A stretch of 64,000 nt of DNA from NCBI GenBank assembly GCA_035576005.1, contig DATLXH010000128.1, forward strand, positions 5,257 through 69,256. The letters run 5' to 3'. Positions 1 to 63,462 of the stretch are shown piece after piece. Under the pieces are notes generated by a model. The model worked only from the letters and a program-made list of their open reading frames with translations. It did not search any database and was not told where the DNA came from. Each line of letters begins with the position of its first letter. Position 1 is the stretch's first letter. The translations under genes were made by a program, and so were the position numbers. This stretch comes from Thermoanaerobaculia bacterium. GTDB lineage: Bacteria; Acidobacteriota; Thermoanaerobaculia; Gp7-AA8.

Positions 1-697
1 TTGCTCGGGTGACGCCGAGAGCCGTATGTGCAATCGCAAGAGAGCCCTGCCACGATGCGACTACGCCGCGCTGTAGGACATACGGAAGCCGATGCAACTG
101 AGTAAGCAGCCGCTCGACATCAGCAGCAATCTTCGCTGCGTGATCGTCGGCGACGACGCCGGGCTTCTCGCCGAGCAGCCACGGTGGCTCGGCCGCGAGC
201 GTCAGCTCGGCTCCATCTTCCACGTTAAAGACGTGCCATTGCATCAAGAAGACGCCGCCAAGGCGCTTTTGGTACGACCACGTCATCGTGGCGCGGTACG
301 ACCGGTCGTCGTAGCTGAACGTTGGCGATTTCCAGCCGTGCCGGCCTGCGTAGTTGTTTACGCCCGACCACTTTGATGCGATCGCGCTTGGTTTCTTGAT
401 GGGACCTTTTTGCACCGCTGCGTCCGGATTCGGTCCCAGCCGCTCCTCCGCGTCTGCCGACAGCGTGATCAGTGCACGGTCTGTCGCGCGGATCGCTGCA
501 GCAGCAGTGCGTGAAGCTTCGTTCCTGCACTCCTCGATAAGCGCGCAAAACAGTCGGTCGCCCGCCGCGTTCGGGCGCAGCAGTCCGTGCTGCTTGCGGT
601 ACATGTCGATGGCATTGCCAAGGACTGGAAGCAGCCAGTCAATCCGCTCATGCCGACTGATGTCGGCGCGGCTCTTTCCCTCTCGCTCTCTTGGCAT
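1..697 (-). CDS. hypothetical protein; 3' end runs off the left window edge (start ATG at 697, 232+ codons without stop)
   Basis: Stop-free minus-strand frame from the ATG (rc of cat at 695-697) to position 1, with GC-rich third positions. The plus-strand ORFs covering this region (92..376, 354..710) are short and in other frames. It was not in the ORF track because it is edge-truncated. Confidence 0.45.
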   Translation of the reverse strand, partial: MPREREGKSRADISRHERIDWLLPVLGNAIDMYRKQHGLLRPNAAGDRLFCALIEECRNEASRTAAAAIRATDRALITLSADAEERLGPNPDAAVQKGPIKKPSAIASKWSGVNNYAGRHGWKSPTFSYDDRSYRATMTWSYQKRLGGVFLMQWHVFNVEDGAELTLAAEPPWLLGEKPGVVADDHAAKIAADVERLLTQLHRLPYVLQRGVVASWQGSLAIAHTALGVTRA

Positions 698-967
698 GTT
701 CTCGATGTGACTGCGTGTCGCCCATGTGACGGTCACATGCGGCTCACATGGAAAGTGTGGCCACGTACCGGTCGACGCCCTCTCCCTGCCCGCCTAGTCT
801 CGCATTTATCGATTCTCGGTGCATCGAGGACGAGAGATCGGTACCAGAAGGAGGCGAGCAGCAAAAGTTTAACCCCCCGGCCGCACGAACGGTCAGGGGG
901 TTCGGAGGCAAGCGCCGCCGGCGCTTCACACATTCATCCCACAACCCTTTTGAAGTGGAGAGAAAAG

Positions 968-1309
968 ATGAACATGCTTCAGCGCGTTGGTAATGATGTA
1001 CCCGGTCAGGTTGAACCTGTCAAACCGAGACAGGTCTATCCCACCGGTGAGCCACTTTATGACGTCGACGACTTGGATGCGCGTGCCGACGCGAATCTCC
1101 GTCGCGGCAACGGAATCATCGACGAGATCGTCTACCCGCGTCTTGCCGCAAGGGGCGTATCGAAAGCCGATTACCACCGCGTGGTGATGGGCATGGTCAG
1201 GTCAATCCAGTGGTCCCGCGAGTTCGGCGGCCCCACCGCGAAGCTTCTTGGAGTCGTCCCCAGCGGTCTCAACGGAACTGCCGCCGAGCCGAAGGTGTGC
1301 AAGTGCTGA
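968..1309 (+). CDS. hypothetical small protein (113 aa)
   Basis: ATG at 968 preceded by a GGAGAGAAAAG RBS-like stretch. This is the protein-like C-terminal part of track ORF 587..1309. Its stop overlaps the next gene start. Confidence 0.4.
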   Translation: MNMLQRVGNDVPGQVEPVKPRQVYPTGEPLYDVDDLDARADANLRRGNGIIDEIVYPRLAARGVSKADYHRVVMGMVRSIQWSREFGGPTAKLLGVVPSGLNGTAAEPKVCKC

Positions 1310-2190
1310 CGCCGATCGATTATAGCCACTCTGTGGGTGCCGCCGGAGGGCGGCCCCCACTCCGCTCCCTGCTTCTTGCCCTGCTTCTACTCAGTGCATC
1401 GCTTGTTCTGGCCTGCGCGCCGAAAACCGCCGTCGGCGGGGCCGCTGCTATCCCAGGGGCGCAGGCGAGTAACGCGTTGCCAGCCAGCAACTCGCCGACA
1501 TCGCAGACGACGCTGTCGAGGCCGTGCGTCGGCTGGCCGAAGCGTGCGGCGATCCTCTTTGATCAGTCCTCATCGACCGGCCAGACCCGCACCGAGCATC
1601 CGGCTGTCCAACAGCTCGACCCACTGATCGATTGCTCCATCCGTTCTGGCGGAGAACTCATCGTCGGTTCGATCCGTGACACATCAAACGAGACGCTCAC
1701 GCGCCTGCTCGTCTCGCCCGGCCCGGTCCGGCCGACGCCCACGCCGACAACCAACAACGCGGTCCTCGACTACGACAGTGCAGCAGCCTTCGAAGCGGAA
1801 CTCGCAGCGTTCAACGTTCGTGAGGCTGCGTGGCAGGCTCGAGTGACGGTGAACGTTGCCCAATTTCGCAAGTTGACGGCCGAGTTGCTGGCGAGGCGGG
1901 CGGACGCAACGGCAACCGCGCTCGCCGAGGCCGTCACGCGAGCGTATGTAGCATTGGATGAACCCACCCCGTTTGCGTGGTTGGAGAACGCAGAGCGGGT
2001 GCTCGTGCTCGTGACCGACGGTGACCAGACCGCGAGCTCTCGCGTCGTTCCGATGCCGGCGCGACCCACCACCGTGTATGCCGTGAACGGTGACGGTCGT
2101 CGCGTCGATCTGCAGCACCTCAGCCCAATTCCCTTCGAGTCCTTTGATCGGGCGGTCGTCTCGCTCACCGGAGGACGCGATGATCAGTAA
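1303..2190 (+). CDS. von Willebrand factor A (vWA) domain lipoprotein
   Basis: GTG start with signal plus lipobox (LLLLSASLVLAC). It has the MIDAS motif DxSxS (FDQSSSTG) and a later LVLVTDGDQT motif typical of vWA domains. Confidence 0.6.
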   Translation: MLTPIDYSHSVGAAGGRPPLRSLLLALLLLSASLVLACAPKTAVGGAAAIPGAQASNALPASNSPTSQTTLSRPCVGWPKRAAILFDQSSSTGQTRTEHPAVQQLDPLIDCSIRSGGELIVGSIRDTSNETLTRLLVSPGPVRPTPTPTTNNAVLDYDSAAAFEAELAAFNVREAAWQARVTVNVAQFRKLTAELLARRADATATALAEAVTRAYVALDEPTPFAWLENAERVLVLVTDGDQTASSRVVPMPARPTTVYAVNGDGRRVDLQHLSPIPFESFDRAVVSLTGGRDDQ

Positions 2191-3085
2191 GGAGGCAATC
2201 TACGCCGCTCTGGTCACGCTGGCCCGGACGATTGTTCGTGCGGGGCGTGAGACGCTCGACTCGATCAGTCGCGCCGAGTCAGCGACGGACCGGCTCGAAC
2301 GATTCGTGCAGCTTCATGCTGCCAGCCTTGCGATGTGGGCCGAGAAGAAGTCGACCTTCATCGGCTTTCTGATCAAGCTCGCAGTCGCTTTCGCGACCGA
2401 CTTCGCGCTGCTCGAGCCGCTCGCCCGGGCGCTGGTCATCCGCATCATCCCTGGGGCCGAGATCGCGGCGACGGTCGCGGCGATCTTTGCGCCGATTCCG
2501 GTGATCGTCGCGGAGTGCTTCATCGCCGTGAAGTACGCGAAGGCGAAGGAGTGGGAGGGCCGCCTCGGCACCACGGCGCACTCCGGACGCTGGCTGGCCC
2601 TCGGGCTGATCGTCGCGGCCATCCCGGCCACGCTCGTGCTCGCGCTCGGAATGATGTCGACGGTCACTGCTGCTGCTCTCGGATGGGCGGCGCTGGCAGG
2701 CCGTCAGGCACTCAACATCGTGCTGGCGCTCGTGTCGGTAACGTTGCACGTGCTGGTCGTCTTCAGCGGGACGACGCCGAGCGATTTCGTAAAGGCGGTC
2801 GACGCGGTGATCGGAAAGATTCGCCGCCAGAAGATCGTCGACAACGCCTGGGAACTCGTGAGGGTGAAATACAACGCCACCCTCGCCCTCGCCTCCAGGT
2901 ACGAGAACGCGAGGACGGAGCACGACGGCGTGCACGGAGTGGTTGCCGTGTATCCCTTTCCCGAAAGCGTCCTGAAGCTCATCCGGCGGGAGTTGCCCAA
3001 TTTCGGGCGGCCGAGAAAAGGCAGCGACCTGCCCTTCATCCCGATCGACCCGGACGATGAGCCCGAGCAGCCGGTCTACCACTGA
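2180..3085 (+). CDS. polytopic membrane protein, hypothetical (cargo partner of the vWA lipoprotein)
   Basis: ATG at 2180 with a GGAGGA RBS at 2170-2175. It has 4-bp overlap coupling with the upstream gene and several hydrophobic helices. Confidence 0.5.
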   Translation: MISKEAIYAALVTLARTIVRAGRETLDSISRAESATDRLERFVQLHAASLAMWAEKKSTFIGFLIKLAVAFATDFALLEPLARALVIRIIPGAEIAATVAAIFAPIPVIVAECFIAVKYAKAKEWEGRLGTTAHSGRWLALGLIVAAIPATLVLALGMMSTVTAAALGWAALAGRQALNIVLALVSVTLHVLVVFSGTTPSDFVKAVDAVIGKIRRQKIVDNAWELVRVKYNATLALASRYENARTEHDGVHGVVAVYPFPESVLKLIRRELPNFGRPRKGSDLPFIPIDPDDEPEQPVYH

Positions 3086-3167
3086 GGCAGCTGGGGAGCG
3101 TGAACACTGCGCTCCCCAGCAGCTTCGACCTTCACTCCACGACAGGGAGAGCCCTGTCCTGCAGCGA

Positions 3168-3368
3168 ATGCCGAAGCGATCCCTGGAAGCGGATGCCCGC
3201 GCGGCACTTGAAGCGCGCAGAGCGGCACCGTTCGACGACGAGGAGTGGTCAGTGGCACGCGAGCGACTCTTGGAGTTCTTCGCGTTGCTTGGCCGCTGGG
3301 CCGACCGACATGCAAATGCCGAATCGATCGGCGACAATGCCTCGACGCCGGAGAGGAGATCGAATTGA
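3168..3368 (+). CDS. small hypothetical protein (67 aa) upstream of the recombinase; possible Xis/regulatory protein
   Basis: ATG at 3168. Its TGA overlaps the recombinase ATG (TGATG coupling). Basic and acidic helical composition. Confidence 0.3.
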   Translation: MPKRSLEADARAALEARRAAPFDDEEWSVARERLLEFFALLGRWADRHANAESIGDNASTPERRSN

Positions 3369-4996
3369 TGGCTGAGAACAAGGTCAATGCGGTGCTGTAC
3401 GTTCGCGTGAGCAGCCGAGAGCAGGCGATCGAGGGCTACTCCATCGAGGCGCAGCGCCGGTTTCTCGTGCAGCATGCGGCGGCCGCCGGATTCCAGATCG
3501 TCGCTGAGTTCAGCGATGAGGAGACCGCCAAAACCACCGGCCGGCCAGGCTTCGAAGCACTTTTGGCGTACATTCGCTCGCGTTCGGATGTGCGGACCAT
3601 CCTGGTCGAGAAAACGGACCGACTGCTGCGGAACTTTCGCGATTTCATCACGATCGATGAAGCAGAGATCGACGTCGTCTTCGCAAAAGAAGGCACCACC
3701 TTCGGTCCGAACAGCCACTCGTCGCAGCGATTTCTGCAGACGATCAAGGTCGGCATGGCCAGGCACTACATCGAGAACCTGAGCGAGGAAGTGAAGAAAG
3801 GTCTCCATGAGAAATGCCGCCTCGACGGTGCATGGCCCGCGCTCGCGCCGCTCGGGTATCGGAATGTCAGCGACGCATTCGGGATCGCTCCTGATCCGGT
3901 CAAAGCGCCGCTCGTGAAGCAGCTCTTCGAAGAGGCGGCGCGTGGCGACAGGAGTCATCGCACACTAGCGGCCTTCGCGTATGACATCGGTCTCCGGACG
4001 CGGGATGGTCATCGCATCGGGAAGAGCCATATCGCGAAGATCATCAGTAACCCGCTCTACGCTGGCCAGTTCTCGTGGGGCGGCAAACAGTACGAAGGTA
4101 AGTACGAGCCGCTGGTGACGACGACGCTGTTCCATCGGGTGCAGCACGCACTCTCCGCGAAGAGCAAGAGCAAGACACGAAAGTTCCTTTTTCCGCTTTC
4201 CGGTCTGCTTTCTTGCGGTGTCTGTGGCGGTCGCATGTCCGGCGACTTGAAGGTGAAAGTCACATCCAAAGCCCGCCATGAATTCGTGTACTACAGCTGC
4301 GGTGGCCGAATGGGGTGTCGCGAGTATTTCCCTGAGCGGATCTTCGAAACAAAGATCGTCTCGATCCTCGATTCTCTCAAACTCGACGGCGCTGTCTCGG
4401 CCTGGATCGGTGAAGAGTTGGCGCGGTGGTATGACACATCCACCGAGCAGGAACAGGTAGAAAAGGAACGGCGCGAGCGGCGAATCGGGCAGCTTCGGAC
4501 GCGGATGCGGAAGGCCTGGGAAGAGAAGGAAGAGGGGACGCTCGATGCCGGCAGCTACCGCTCGTTCGTCTCCGATTGGCAGGCGGAGATCGACGAGCTG
4601 CTCCGCTCGATGACGATGGCGCGGCCCACGGTCAGCCGAGGCGCATTTCTGCGGGCGGGTGCAGCGCCTCTCGAACTCCTGCAAGCTGCACCGGCTCTGT
4701 ACGTTACGCAATCCCGTGAGGAGAAGAACGCTCTCTGCAAAATCGTCTTCTCGAACCTCACTGTGGCGAAGGACGATGGCGAGGCAAGTCTCTCAGCCGA
4801 CTTGTGTTCGCCGTTCGACGCACTGGTCGGGATCGGCACGCTTCCACCCGGAAGTGGAGATTGGCTGGGGAGGAAGGATTCGAACCTTCGAATGTCGGCT
4901 CCAAAGGCCGATGCCTTACCACTTGGCGACTCCCCAACGAAGTGCAGAATGCACCGTCACGAATCGAAATTTCGGATGGGTGGCTACGCAGTGTAG
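3368..4996 (+). CDS. large serine recombinase (resolvase/invertase N-domain + recombinase domain + zinc ribbon); 3' ~45 codons are antisense of tRNA-Gln
   Basis: N-terminal VLYVRVSSREQ catalytic Ser motif, followed by recombinase-domain and CxxC...C zinc-ribbon segments. The frame has no stop until 4996 and therefore reads through 4862-4936 (tRNA antisense). The true C-terminus is uncertain. Confidence 0.85.
   Translation: MAENKVNAVLYVRVSSREQAIEGYSIEAQRRFLVQHAAAAGFQIVAEFSDEETAKTTGRPGFEALLAYIRSRSDVRTILVEKTDRLLRNFRDFITIDEAEIDVVFAKEGTTFGPNSHSSQRFLQTIKVGMARHYIENLSEEVKKGLHEKCRLDGAWPALAPLGYRNVSDAFGIAPDPVKAPLVKQLFEEAARGDRSHRTLAAFAYDIGLRTRDGHRIGKSHIAKIISNPLYAGQFSWGGKQYEGKYEPLVTTTLFHRVQHALSAKSKSKTRKFLFPLSGLLSCGVCGGRMSGDLKVKVTSKARHEFVYYSCGGRMGCREYFPERIFETKIVSILDSLKLDGAVSAWIGEELARWYDTSTEQEQVEKERRERRIGQLRTRMRKAWEEKEEGTLDAGSYRSFVSDWQAEIDELLRSMTMARPTVSRGAFLRAGAAPLELLQAAPALYVTQSREEKNALCKIVFSNLTVAKDDGEASLSADLCSPFDALVGIGTLPPGSGDWLGRKDSNLRMSAPKADALPLGDSPTKCRMHRHESKFRMGGYAV
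4862..4936 (-). tRNA. tRNA-Gln (anticodon TTG)
   Basis: rc = TGGGGAGTCGCCAAGTGGTAAGGCATCGGCCTTTGGAGCCGACATTCGAAGGTTCGAATCCTTCCTCCCCAGCCA. 7-bp acceptor stem, D-arm GCCAAGTGGTAAGGC (Gln-like), anticodon stem TCGGC/GCCGA with loop CTTTGGA (anticodon TTG), T-arm GAAGGTTCGAATCCTTC, encoded CCA. Confidence 0.85.
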
Positions 4997-5060
4997 ATGA
5001 GCGAAGTCCTGCAAGCCGCGAAACTGTAATCCCCCTCTCCCGGCGGGAGAGGGGCTAGGG

Positions 5061-5528
5061 GTGAGGGTCTCACACCCGAGGTACGATCGTAATGTGAACC
5101 ATGAACCGCTGAAACTACGTGAGCAAGCACGAGAGCTGCGAAGGCGAGAAACGTCCGCAGAGTCCGCGATGTGGAAGAACCTCCGACGTCGAGGTTTCCT
5201 CGGACTCAAGTTCAGAAGACAGCACGAAGTTGGCAGGTATATCGTTGATTTCTTCTGCGAGGAACTCAAGCTGGCGATCGAGCTTGATGGCGCGTCACAC
5301 TTCGAGCCTGCGGTGATTGAGCTTGATGCAAAACGAACTCGCGTTTTGCAGCAGTTCGGAATCACTGTAATCCGAATCGAGAACGAGGAGTTCTTAGTGA
5401 ACGGTGGGTTGGTGATGGAGAGGATTCGAGACATCGTCGTGCAGCTCAGCAGGGACCCTCACCCGCCGCTCGACGCGGCACCCTCTCCCGCGGGGAGAGG
5501 GGAGCGGCCAGAGCCGGGCTTCACCTGA
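5061..5528 (+). CDS. DUF559 (very-short-patch-repair-like endonuclease fold) domain protein
   Basis: WKNLRRRGFLGLKFRRQHEVGRYIVDFFC...ELDGASH...RTRVLQQFGITVIRIENEE is the typical DUF559 signature. GTG start at 5061, or internal ATG at 5166. Flanked by inverted REP-like palindromes. Confidence 0.65.
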   Translation: MRVSHPRYDRNVNHEPLKLREQARELRRRETSAESAMWKNLRRRGFLGLKFRRQHEVGRYIVDFFCEELKLAIELDGASHFEPAVIELDAKRTRVLQQFGITVIRIENEEFLVNGGLVMERIRDIVVQLSRDPHPPLDAAPSPAGRGERPEPGFT

Positions 5529-24934: not shown

Positions 24935-25055
24935 GTGTCATCCCGCGTCAAGTGACGCTCGACGCTTCTGTGCAAGGGAAGTGCACAGTTTCACAGGCCC
25001 CGACCTCGTGCTGTCGGCTCAAGCCGGAGTTTCCCTCGAACGGAGAAACTTATTA

Positions 25056-25230
25056 CCCGCATTTCTCACAGACCTTTGTCGTGAGACGGCGGAGAGTGGC
25101 TTGGATGCGAGGCGCACGGCGAGTTTGCGACGAAGGCATAGTCGACACTATGTCAAGGAGCGAAATTGCCGTGCAACGAAGCAGACAGGCCGCTATCCGT
25201 CGTCTCGCGGCGAAGGTCTGCTTCGGGCGG
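25056..25230. mobile_element. MITE family A copy (right terminus degenerate)
   Basis: CCCGCATTTCTCACAGACCTTTGTCGTGAGACGGCGGAGAGTGGCTTGGATGCGAGGCGCACGGCG... is identical to other copies. Confidence 0.55.
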
Positions 25231-27942: not shown

Positions 27943-28052
27943 GTAGGACAGACACTTGTGTGTCTTTCGTTCTTTTCGAATAGGACAGACACTCTTGCTG
28001 TCTCCGTGGAAAATGCAGGGGTCCCGTGACAGACAAGAGTGTCTGTCCTACA
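27943..28052. repeat. hairpin repeat family C (three units of the GACAGACA..TGTCTGTC hairpin; outer units TGTAGGACAGACAC / GTGACAGACAAGAGTGTCTGTCCTACA)
   Basis: Imperfect palindrome with three GACAGAC.../GTCTGTC hairpin units. The same 27-nt unit occurs at 33615, 35581 and 63427. Confidence 0.55.
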
Positions 28053-31387: not shown

Positions 31388-31391
31388 TTAA

Positions 31392-31569
31392 CCCGCATTT
31401 CTCACAGACCTTTGTCGTGAGACGGCGGAGAGTGGCCTGGATGCGAGGCGCACGGCGATTTTGCGACGAAGGCATAGTCGACACTATGTCAAGGAGCGAA
31501 ATTGCCGTGCAACGAAGCAGACAGGCCGCTATCCGTCGTCTCACGACAAAGGTCTGTGAGAAATGCGGG
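31392..31569. mobile_element. MITE family A (178 bp; whole element is an imperfect palindrome)
   Basis: CCCGCATTTCTCACAGACCTTTGTCGTGAGACGG...GTCGACACTATGTC...CCGTCGTCTCACGACAAAGGTCTGTGAGAAATGCGGG. Flanked by TTAA...TAG. Confidence 0.65.
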
Positions 31570-32279: not shown

Positions 32280-32439
32280 GAGCGATCCTTTCGTTGCGAA
32301 GTTCCGCCCACCATGAAGTGATCGAGTGCGCGAGTCCTCAGGAATCTATTGGATTTTCATGAATGCGTCTCGTTCCACCTTGCCGCGCCACAGAGATCGG
32401 CCCTGCGTGCGCCCGAAACGTTCTCCTTCGCCTTGTTAA

Positions 32440-32618
32440 CCCGCATTTCTCACAGACCTTCGCCGTGAGACGACGGACAGCGGCCTGTCTGCTTCGTTGC
32501 ACGGGCAATTTCGCTCCTTGACATAGTGTCGACTATGCCTTCGTCGCAAAATCGCCGAGCGCCTCGCATCCAAGCCACTCTCCGCCGTCTCACGACAAAG
32601 GTCTGTGAGAAATGCGGG
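32440..32618. mobile_element. MITE family A (inverse orientation)
   Basis: The same 179-bp element, flanked by GTTAA...TAAG. Confidence 0.65.
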
Positions 32619-32715
32619 CTAAGGAAAGAAACCTGTTCGATCGCGTTGACGTCCTTCTCGCGATCCGGCAACATCCGCCCTCGGTTTCCTGTCGCTGCCA
32701 CAAAAAGGAGAGCAA

Positions 32716-33527: not shown

Positions 33528-33614
33528 CAGGCCCCTCGTGTAGCGCAGGCGTCTCGCCTGCCTTGTGTCCCGTCCATCCGGATCTTTCCACACCTCGAAG
33601 GCAGGCAGGCGGAT

Positions 33615-33687
33615 GTAGGACAGACACTCTTGTCTGTCGCGCGTCGAAGCCGTTTCGATCATGCCTGGCAGACAAGAGTGTCTGTCC
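33615..33687. repeat. hairpin repeat family C (two inverted units)
   Basis: TGTAGGACAGACACTCTTGTCTGTC ... GACAAGAGTGTCTGTCCCAC. Confidence 0.5.
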
Positions 33688-35577: not shown

Positions 35578-35643
35578 CGCGTGACAGACAAGAGTGTCTG
35601 TCCTACATGCGCGTGTACGACAGACACTCTTGTCTGTCACGCG
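35578..35643. repeat. hairpin repeat family C (two inverted 27-nt units)
   Basis: GTGACAGACAAGAGTGTCTGTCCTACATGCGCGTGTACGACAGACACTCTTGTCTGTCACGCG. Confidence 0.55.
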
Positions 35644-44997: not shown

Positions 44998-45146
44998 GAC
45001 GGCGGAGAGTGGCTTGGATGCGAGGCGCACGGCGATTTTGCGACGAAGGCATAGTCGACACTATGTCGAGGAGCGAAATTGGCGTGCAACGAAGCAGACA
45101 GGCCGCTATCCGTCGTATCACGGCGAAGGTCTGTGAGAAATGCGGG
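44969..45146. mobile_element. MITE family A copy inserted at the 3' end of the hydrogenase protease gene
   Basis: CCCGCATTTTTCACGGAGCTTTGTCGTGAGACGGCGGAGAGTGGCTTGG ... GAAGGTCTGTGAGAAATGCGGG, followed by TTAATAA. Confidence 0.65.
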
Positions 45147-45165
45147 TTAATAACGGAGCACGCCC

Positions 45166-46557: not shown

Positions 46558-46799
46558 GTTAGTTGACCTAGAGCACGGTGAGCCCCGCAAGGGGCGGCAT
46601 CGATGCCGCCGCTTCGCGGCTCCGTGGAATTCTCGTACAGTCACACCCCACCCTCACGGGTGGGGCTAAACGATATCGCCGCTTCGCGGCTGGGAGGACG
46701 CACCAGTTCATCACCTCTTCACCAGCCGTTCCCGGCTGTTCTCCCGCTACAGGGATGACACGCTCGCGGGTTGATAGAAGGGTTGTGAGAAAATGCCGC

Positions 46800-59068: not shown

Positions 59069-59104
59069 ATTGTGGCCGGACATTCCAATGTCCGGCGGAT
59101 CAGC

Positions 59105-59282
59105 CCCGCATTTCTCACAGACCTTCGCCGCGAGACGACGAATAGCGGCCTGTCTGCTTCGTTGCACGGCAATTTCGCTCCTTGAGATAGTGTCGACTAT
59201 GCCTTCGTCGCAAAATCGCCGTGCGCCTCGCATCCAAGCCACTCTCCGCCGTCTCACGACAAAGGTCTGTGAGAAATGCGGG
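59105..59282. mobile_element. MITE family A copy (inverse orientation) inserted inside a palindromic hairpin
   Basis: Flanks TGTGGCCGGACATTCCAATGTCCGGC (59072-59097) and GCCGGACATTGGAATGTCTGGCCACA (59313-59338) are inverted copies. Confidence 0.65.
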
Positions 59283-63426: not shown

Positions 63427-63454
63427 GCGTGACAGACAAGAGTGTCTGTCCTAC
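63427..63454. repeat. single unit of hairpin repeat family C
   Basis: GTGACAGACAAGAGTGTCTGTCCTACA. Confidence 0.5.
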
Positions 63455-63462
63455 ATTGACCC

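Follow-up and report, generated by a model that had tools for sequence, protein, structure and literature searches.

The 64,000-nt stretch analyzed here (contig DATLXH010000128.1 of assembly GCA_035576005.1, from a Thermoanaerobaculia bacterium; hereafter the window) very probably begins with the right-hand end of a mobile element (positions 1 to about 4865), which was integrated by its own large serine recombinase (LSR) at the 3′ end of a tRNA-Gln(UUG) gene. Serine integrases are the main tools for the insertion of large DNA into genomes; their natural targets are considered to be mainly protein-coding genes, and tRNA genes are usually assigned to tyrosine integrases. The element of the window appears to be a member of a widespread and largely undescribed variant of serine integrases. 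The coordinates of all features are collected in Table 1.

The tRNA gene, detected by ARAGORN as tRNA-Gln(ttg), is the sole tRNA in the window and is intact, with an Rfam score of 67.2 bits. On the opposite strand, the recombinase reading frame starts with an ATG at 3368 and meets its first stop at 4994–4996, i.e., 60 nt past the 5′ end of the tRNA. ARAGORN, Rfam, the reading frame and Pfam thus all agree with the original prediction that the 3′ end of a serine recombinase gene overlaps the tRNA and reads through it. Codon 499 (TGG, 4862–4864) is the antisense of the CCA end, codons 499–523 are tRNA antisense and codons 524–542 correspond to the tRNA 5′ flank; the claim that the last ~45 codons are antisense to the tRNA therefore stands for 25 of the last 44 (W499 to V542), the other 19 and the stop lying in the 5′ flank. 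The protein was assigned to the LSRs because it matches, in this order, the Pfam families Resolvase (PF00239, E=4.8e-23, residues 8–149), Recombinase (PF07508, E=1.7e-14) and Zn_ribbon_recom (PF13408, E=2.4e-6, with a score of 28.3 that exceeds the cut-off of 25.3). In the family alignment, R13 and S15 (in YVRVSS), Q19, D84-R85 and R88 of the catalytic domain are invariant, as are C283, C286 and C311 of the zinc ribbon, while C317 is at least 90% conserved; the recombinase of the window has kept every family-invariant residue, including R13, S15 and the four zinc-ribbon cysteines. AlphaFold confidently predicts a standard LSR fold for residues 1 to ~490, with a coiled-coil formed by helices 341–389 and 394–417 (pLDDT ~90–97).

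Evidence for the insertion came from a scan of public metagenome contigs with the 3′ 54 nt of the tRNA-Gln. Four contigs matched, among them L130, a contig from a close relative whose tRNA-Gln is identical to that of the window and which shares 86% identity with it over the tRNA and 5′ flank and 93% over the region of a DUF559 gene. On the 3′ side of the tRNA, L130 carries nuoA, nuoE, nuoF and a threonine aldolase gene, and the recombinase is absent; when the window recombinase was compared with L130 by tblastn, only residues 499–542 aligned (84% identity), which is the tRNA region. We extended the window to the left with L001, a Logan contig of 8 kb from SRR7741809 and the sole one with the exact recombinase protein, which adds 3 kb (L001 coordinate = window + 3005). 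Because L130 lacks the recombinase, its homology to the window starts at base 4861 and no part of its left flank was found in the window or in L001, the sequence left of 4861 was inserted, over a length of 7.87 kb or more, and the tRNA is a host gene. The integrated-element tip of the original prediction is thereby upheld, L130 presenting the empty site, with the same tRNA and right flank and with housekeeping genes in place of the recombinase. A comparison of GC contents, suggested with that prediction, showed slightly higher values at 1–4000 (0.62–0.65) than in the rest of the window (0.57–0.62).

The same arrangement recurs far beyond this organism. We scanned one genome per species and inspected the best 80 homologous loci, which have 33–43% identity to the window recombinase and belong to Acidobacteriota, many Alphaproteobacteria, Myxococcota, Bdellovibrionota, Planctomycetota, Ignavibacteria, an actinomycete metagenome-assembled genome (MAG) and others. 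In 72 of these 80 loci a minus-strand tRNA overlaps the 3′ end of the recombinase gene, so the adjacency is far beyond chance. The tRNAs involved are Asn (28), Gln(CUG) (23), Gln(UUG) (8), Asp (4), Met (3), His (2), Pro (2), Ala (1) and Ser (1), and the recombinase stop is located within the tRNA at 54 loci and past it, as in the window, at 16. The closest recombinase relatives are from Thermoanaerobaculia and Holophagales MAGs. Among sequenced phages and plasmids, full-length identities did not exceed 25%; the Legionella adelaidensis record came to light in this search. Viral contigs add tmRNA (L097 and L100), tRNA-Leu, tRNA-Asp and tRNA-Ala as further targets, and a relative in Legionella adelaidensis (25% identity) overlaps tRNA-Asn. 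In an alignment of 26 sequences, relatives with 38–67% identity align up to about residue 500 and W499 is invariant; from there on the alignment reads W-L-G-x-x-D-S-N, the antisense of CCA, discriminator, acceptor stem and T-arm. Among 120 metagenome homologues, 64 end in a tRNA-antisense tail of the form W-x3-5-(D/G)SN and ~35 more stop 1–4 codons past the W.

From these data we propose the following course of integration. Recombinase dimers would bind attP and the tRNA end, with the acceptor stem and T-arm read as the host half-site and the zinc-ribbon domain probably contacting the T-loop motif TCGAAC. Strand exchange would take place at a 2-bp crossover, as is usual for the short att sites (40–50 bp) of LSRs, near tRNA positions 71–73 (window 4865–4867), ~13–14 bp from this motif. 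The element would supply only the last few tRNA nucleotides and a repeat of a few bp would flank the element; the tRNA is regenerated exactly. After integration, the reading frame continues into the tRNA antisense and acquires 42 host-encoded residues that are predicted to be disordered, and the excised form would end differently. Speculatively, convergent transcription of the tRNA might dampen expression of the integrase.

Several points weigh against this proposal. The far end of the element is not in the window and its own attL and attP were not seen; neither an excised copy nor a sign of present activity was found. Genes typical of phages or of conjugation are lacking from the 7.9 kb seen, and the element may be a phage remnant, a satellite or another kind of island. 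The sequence TGGCCTCTTCAACCATGAAGAAGTTGAAC at L001 93–121 (window ~−2912), in which TGGC is followed at +24 by TTGAAC, is a weak candidate for the far junction and resembles the phage P′ arms GATGATGTTCGAAC; ~0.1–0.4 such matches are expected by chance, and the site is 92 nt from the contig end, adjoins a host-type palindromic repeat and may just encode MKKLNE. If it were the far junction, the element would measure ~7.8 kb and the excised-form integrase would end in GDWPLQP followed by a stop. The threonine aldolase of L130, taken as a route to the far junction, led to no orthologue above 71% identity. With regard to the exchange itself, the position of the crossover dinucleotide and the reading of the T-loop motif by the zinc-ribbon domain were both deduced from spacing and analogy only, no conserved motif was detected in the left half-site on the host side (the DNA 3′ of the tRNA), leaving dimer binding there unexplained, and the search for a dyad-symmetry center in attP-like sites that might have fixed the crossover returned noise-level scores in AT-rich DNA.

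Part of this is what one would expect if the element were a fixed and decayed remnant, with a recombinase that moves nothing and a read-through into the tRNA that is a neutral leftover. In keeping with that explanation, neither a far end nor an excised form was seen, the available 7.9 kb contain no genes of phages or of conjugation, and some family members have clearly decayed (an internal stop in L034, a reading frame that stops short of the tRNA in L031, and a 108-nt integrase fragment in Legionella). We nevertheless consider it unlikely, as the reading frame is intact with all family-invariant residues and a confident predicted fold, a four-gene operon with overlapping stops and starts has been kept, and the site is empty in a relative with 86–93% flank identity, so that the insertion is evolutionarily recent.

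Integration by the element's own LSR at the very end of the tRNA gene is further supported by the element boundaries in relatives, seen in four independent comparisons. L097 and L098 come from one metagenome, share 99% identity over 8.2 kb and have integrases with 485 of 485 residues identical. They adjoin a tmRNA and a tRNA-Leu gene, respectively, and their DNA identity ends at ...CATAAACTGG, the core being TGG only. The closest relatives of the window element, L125 (67% identity) and L126 (53%), abut tRNA-Asn, share GA(A/G)GAT-TGGCTG with the window and then diverge into their own tRNA. The block GGAAGTGGAGAT beside the TGG is kept despite the different tRNA; it belongs to the putative P arm, whose protein segment (residues 492–498) is predicted to be disordered by AlphaFold. 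Near-identical element ends also abut tRNA-Gln(CUG) and tRNA-Gln(UUG) genes with differing stems (L066, L058 and L010). Both junctions are seen in Legionella adelaidensis (NZ_LR134433.1, L128), where the second one is situated 12.4 kb upstream of the integrase end and consists of the integrase 3′ end, duplicated over 108 nt, and TGGCTCCCC, past which the sequence is unrelated and P′-like, giving a core of at most 9 nt. Since the homology to L130 starts at 4861 and the identity with L125 and L126 ends after TGGCTG, the crossover can be bracketed to 4861–4867, which matches the ≤9-nt core of Legionella and the TGG-only core of L097 and L098. Overall, the shared cores are 3–9 nt long, and at most ~7 nt in the subfamily of the window.

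With the crossover so near the terminus of the RNA gene, no long tRNA repeat is to be expected. Exact repeats of at least 12 nt of the tRNA 3′ end in the 10 kb upstream of 72 loci were indeed at chance level, and none of 83 loci, L001 included, had a 22-nt repeat of this end when 4 mismatches were allowed. The original prediction had proposed that the absence of a second copy of the tRNA 3′ segment would speak against an integrated element; the search was negative as stated, and with a core of at most ~7 nt this outcome does not count against integration. A search of all upstream flanks for the core with the T-loop motif at +24 recovered the known Legionella junction. A pattern match in L020 was rejected as a far junction, as the intervening genes look host-type, and a search for the element-side arm in inverted orientation, which might have marked the far end, gave chance-level matches only.

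A crossover in the T-loop, with an element that brings ~20 nt of the tRNA 3′ end and leaves a 20-bp repeat at its far end, was inferred for the ssrA islands of Dehalococcoides, the nearest precedent in the literature, which carry the serine recombinase DsiB at a tmRNA gene (McMurdie et al. 2011, PMC3146451). For the family studied here such a mode is improbable: identical integrases at tmRNA and tRNA-Leu share just TGG past the junction, near-identical ends occur at tRNA-Gln genes with different acceptor and T stems, the attP forms described below have no tRNA-length 3′ end and show the T-loop motif displaced by 5 bp, and neither the 83 loci with their missing 22-nt repeat nor the 9-nt Legionella core agrees with it. 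By their published description, with which rather than with the sequence the comparison was made, the DsiB islands resemble the window element in having a recombinase of ~540 aa at the island edge, next to the end of a gene for a tRNA-like RNA, and an att repeat embedded in the recombinase gene. They occur in tandem arrays. They differ in the 20-bp repeat, against a core of 3–9 nt at the extreme 3′ end here, and in the small serine recombinase DsiA that accompanies DsiB; the partner gene in the window encodes a 66-aa protein that is not a recombinase, and there is no second resolvase-domain gene in the 7.9 kb.

The attP side became accessible through the phage contigs L133–L135. Their integrases have 40–44% identity to the window recombinase and are flanked on both sides by phage genes (terminase in L133; DnaB, endolysin and tail fibre in L134; lysozyme and tail genes in L135). 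The reading frames run ~21 codons past TGGCTG, encoding W-L-x-x-L-D-D-x-R-T...AA and a stop, and the DNA reads TGGCTG(G/A)CC, 14 nt, TCGAAC, which places the motif at +24. Judged from these sequences, attP is wholly inside the integrase gene in the unintegrated phage relatives, in the last ~25 codons. In integrated loci, TCGAAC starts at +19 from an encoded CCA (72 of 80) and, if the gene lacks the CCA, at +16. The corresponding positions in 17 further viral attP-like junctions and in the Legionella left junction were +24 or +21, a constant outward displacement of 5 bp. The 5-bp offset holds in all ~20 attP-like junctions, the crossover itself being bracketed only to 4861–4867. Because the shift occurs in two different reading frames, as a TGG codon in the high-GC group and as AAT-GGN-GG in the low-GC group, it points to a constraint on the DNA. 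In L118, attP resembles tRNA-Asp with a 5-nt insertion before CGAAC. For the Listeria LI integrase, a model based on the crystal structure (Rutherford et al. 2013, PMC3783163) places the motif of the zinc-ribbon domain 5 bp nearer to the center in attB sites than it is in attP sites, and the shift of TCGAAC fits this prediction by analogy.

The consequence for the protein is a tail encoded by the host. The identical integrases of L097 and L098 bear unrelated tails at their two RNA genes, the phage relatives have a third, conserved type, and the tail of the window recombinase is the part that matches L130; the earlier suggestion that integration sets the C-terminus of the recombinase was therefore correct. 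The linker encoding the att site and the tail are predicted to be unstructured, with pLDDT values of 27–41 in the tail and below 50 throughout residues 492–497 and 501–542. One might take the C-terminal extension for a real, selected protein domain with an incidental tRNA overlap, given that W499 is invariant and that W-L-G-x-x-D-S-N looks conserved in alignments. This is very hard to uphold: the tail conservation tracks tRNA identity and not recombinase phylogeny, tail length in the family ranges from 1 to >150 residues, one enzyme carries two unrelated tails, and the tail matches a recombinase-free contig and has a pLDDT below 50. Equally implausible is that the element was inserted by another enzyme, such as an upstream tyrosine integrase, with the serine recombinase being part of the cargo or acting as a resolvase. 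A tyrosine recombinase does lie beside the serine recombinase in the Legionella island, and the window element is incomplete; yet the serine recombinase gene has the same place and direction with respect to the tRNA end, to the nucleotide, across ~90 loci in many phyla, unintegrated phages hold the tRNA-mimicking site inside the serine recombinase gene, and there is no tyrosine recombinase in the 7.9 kb here or in L125 and L126.

Deposited proteins reflect the tails as well: dozens of entries named "recombinase family protein" end in tRNA-antisense peptides such as ...DSNPDSAVQSRLSYH, ...DSNLRPPD or ...WWS. Many family members, including L027, L068, L004, L049, L065 and L073, have a GC-rich hairpin between A and T runs in the variable C-terminal linker of the integrase gene, 15–45 nt upstream of the tRNA 3′ end (for example AAAAGGCCGTCT...AGACGGCCTTTTT). 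On the tRNA strand, judging by its sequence, it would serve as a terminator after the tRNA, replacing the one displaced by the insertion; in the window, only a weak 5-bp hairpin is present at this position. L126 encodes a second family member at 2732–4285, 5.7 kb upstream of the 53%-identical one and beside a Replic_Relax gene, with no tRNA there. This second member is chromosomal, yet its tail looks attP-like (...LWWRIVDNVRNYF...; DNA TGGTGGAGG...TTAGGAAC), and a simple tandem array fails as an explanation because its core TGGTGG mismatches the core TGGCTG of the neighboring tRNA-Asn. Reverse transcriptase genes were observed near the integrase in several viral relatives.

The 12.4-kb Legionella island contains a helicase/methylase pair, AbiEi/AbiEii, a tyrosine recombinase and a serine recombinase. 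The 108-nt segment at its left junction (L128 35396–35503) duplicates the last 36 codons of the integrase (92% at the amino-acid level) and is not naive host DNA, and a second AbiEii gene is located farther left. This suggests, from sequence comparison, serial integrations into an occupied site followed by decay; the re-use of an occupied (P-O-B′) site by a serine integrase is an unexplained difficulty for that interpretation.

Table 1 Features of the element and its integration site in the window.
Position	Strand	Feature	Basis
1–736	minus	5′ part (~245 codons) of a 499-aa gene, cargo	complete in L001 2242–3741
968–1309	plus	113-aa reading frame	gene call L001 3973–4314; no family match
1303–2190	plus	295-aa putative lipoprotein, maybe vWA-like, first of four overlapping operon genes	motifs by eye
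2180–3085	plus	301-aa hydrophobic multi-pass membrane protein	several hydrophobic stretches; no family match
3168–3368	plus	small conserved reading frame, ~66 aa from M at 3168 (frame open from 3057)	no family match
3368–4867	plus	element-encoded part of the recombinase, residues 1–500, ending in SGDWL	Pfam, alignment, AlphaFold
4837–4860		putative P arm (element-side half-site) inside the recombinase coding sequence	LSR site size (PMC3783163)
4861–4867		interval holding the crossover, TTGGCTG, antisense of tRNA 71–76 plus one base	left limit from L130, right limit from L125/L126
4862–4936	minus	tRNA-Gln(UUG), host gene and integration target	ARAGORN, Rfam; sequence same as tRNA of empty site in L130
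4868–4996	plus	host-encoded tail, residues 501–542 and stop: tRNA antisense, then 5′ flank	tblastn against L130, homologue alignments
4880–4885		T-loop/T-stem motif TCGAAC, putative host-side recognition motif	+19 from tRNA 3′ end

Upstream of the recombinase, all genes listed in the original prediction are present: a truncated reading frame, a small one, a lipoprotein, a membrane protein and a small gene coupled to the recombinase. The last four genes overlap (1303–2190, 2180–3085, 3057/3168–3368 and from 3368 onward) and are all on the plus strand, the truncated first gene being on the minus strand. The 499-aa cargo gene has no Pfam or PADLOC match and no homologue in the related island of L126, and defense-system models (PADLOC) and Pfam gave no match on the cargo except for a reverse transcriptase outside the window. 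The 295-aa protein had been described as a vWA-MIDAS lipoprotein. The lipobox, LVLAC, can be seen by eye, together with DQSSS and VLVLVTDGDQT; the vWA part has no significant match, with only sub-threshold scores for VWA (E=0.044 and 14.4 bits, where the cut-off is 23.8) and VWA_2 (E=0.093), and for VWA_2 in the L126 orthologue (E=0.074). Co-occurrence of this gene with the membrane protein gene, proposed earlier as a check, was seen in L126, where orthologues of both (46% and 42% identity) are found in the same positions upstream of the recombinase. The stop of the small gene overlaps the recombinase start (TGATG, 3366–3370), and homologues located just ahead of the recombinase gene likewise run into its start in L002, L125 and L126 as well as in the phages L133 and L134, making six loci with the window; they share the motif LEAxARAxxExxRxxPFxDxEWxxAKxxLLxFxALLxxW. 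From this conserved position and sequence it may, speculatively, be a candidate for an accessory, regulatory or directionality factor, the last being what LSRs require for excision. The reverse transcriptase is encoded in the same inserted block at L001 424–2184 (window ~−2581 to −821); it has 586 aa with an N-terminal extension of ~290 aa, and its best PADLOC matches are a generic or CRISPR-associated-type reverse transcriptase (2e-57) and the reverse transcriptase portion of RT-Cas1 fusions; DRT classes match more weakly.

On the host side, a DUF559/REase_MTES_1575-like reading frame (5061–5528) follows just past the tRNA, between two copies of the 22-nt palindrome CCCTCTCCCGGCGGGAGAGGGG at 5032–5054 and 5480–5502, of which none is expected by chance and the second is within the 3′ end of the gene. 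A related sequence is present at the left end of L001, both ends of which stop in the repeat, and this probably explains the assembly breaks of L001. The window also contains two families of short interspersed repeats (~45–51 nt and ~25–27 nt), often in inverted pairs, at 25055–25220, 31388–31569, 32436–32624, 45100–45150 and 59105–59282 (first set) and at 28028–28052, 33613–33639, 35583–35608, 59070–59095 and 63431–63462 (second set). They are common to L130 (2520–2570 and 930–1069) and look like REP- or MITE-type elements of this lineage. An Acido-Lenti-1 RNA was detected by Rfam at 46646–46691 on the plus strand (47 bits against a gathering score of 37); taken together with the origin of the closest recombinase relatives, it points to an acidobacterial host.

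The Listeria phage A118 targets the protein-coding gene comK. Its LI integrase is from the same enzyme family as the window recombinase and shares the domain order and the 5-bp offset of the motif (Rutherford et al. 2013, PMC3783163), whereas the target here is the T-arm and acceptor end of a tRNA and attP is inside the integrase reading frame. An att site inside the cognate integrase gene, with C-termini that differ between the integrated and excised forms, is described in PMC4701971 for streptococcal integrative and conjugative elements (ICEs) with a serine integrase that target rumA (Ambroset et al. 2016) and for Mx8, in which the integrated form of the tyrosine integrase is reported to be less active (Magrini et al. 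1999, as cited there). The window element is unlike both, as the rumA ICEs have a protein-coding target, Mx8 a tyrosine integrase, and the replacement tail here is tRNA antisense. With the tRNA islands of tyrosine integrases (PMC4383910) it has in common the integrase at the edge by an intact, restored tRNA and a cargo of unknown or defense-type genes; it differs in the serine enzyme and in the duplication of a few nt instead of a long displaced tRNA fragment (often 17–45+ nt), the absence of a 22-nt fragment from the 83 loci setting it apart from the Islander type. The original prediction had called the arrangement classic, which is true for tyrosine integrases only: serine-family integrases were not known to target tRNA genes according to the Islander paper (PMC4383910), and a 2026 survey found that serine-integrase proviruses prefer coding sequences (PMC13626063). 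A large LSR discovery paper does not mention tRNA (PMC10083194), and a few tycheposons carry LSRs. In the open-access literature that we searched, no description was found of the clade, of a crossover at the extreme 3′ end or of a P′ arm that mimics a tRNA.

Tentatively, we therefore raise the possibility of an undescribed, phylum-spanning lineage of serine integrases, with hosts among Acidobacteriota, Proteobacteria, Myxococcota, Bdellovibrionota, Planctomycetota, Ignavibacteria, gut-type low-GC phages and Legionella, that would use the acceptor stem and T-arm as half-site, cross over at the last nucleotides and carry in its phages an arm mimicking the tRNA with a 5-bp insertion, the exchange of tails perhaps acting as a sensor of the integration state. 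If this is true, swapping the native tail (W-L-x-x-L-D-D-x-R-T...AA) for tRNA antisense may alter the activity or directionality of the integrase. For annotation, the W-L-G-x-x-D-S-N of hundreds of database proteins should be taken as tRNA antisense and not as protein; such tails mimic a conserved C-terminal motif and can lead to false homology assignments among unrelated recombinases and even to contigs with only a tRNA. The duplication of only a few bases explains why finders based on tRNA repeats miss these islands. The family offers dozens of matched attP/attB pairs, in which the 5-bp shift can be read straight from the sequence, for studying how zinc-ribbon and recombinase domains read DNA and, as T-arms are universal, candidate enzymes with native sites in almost any organism.

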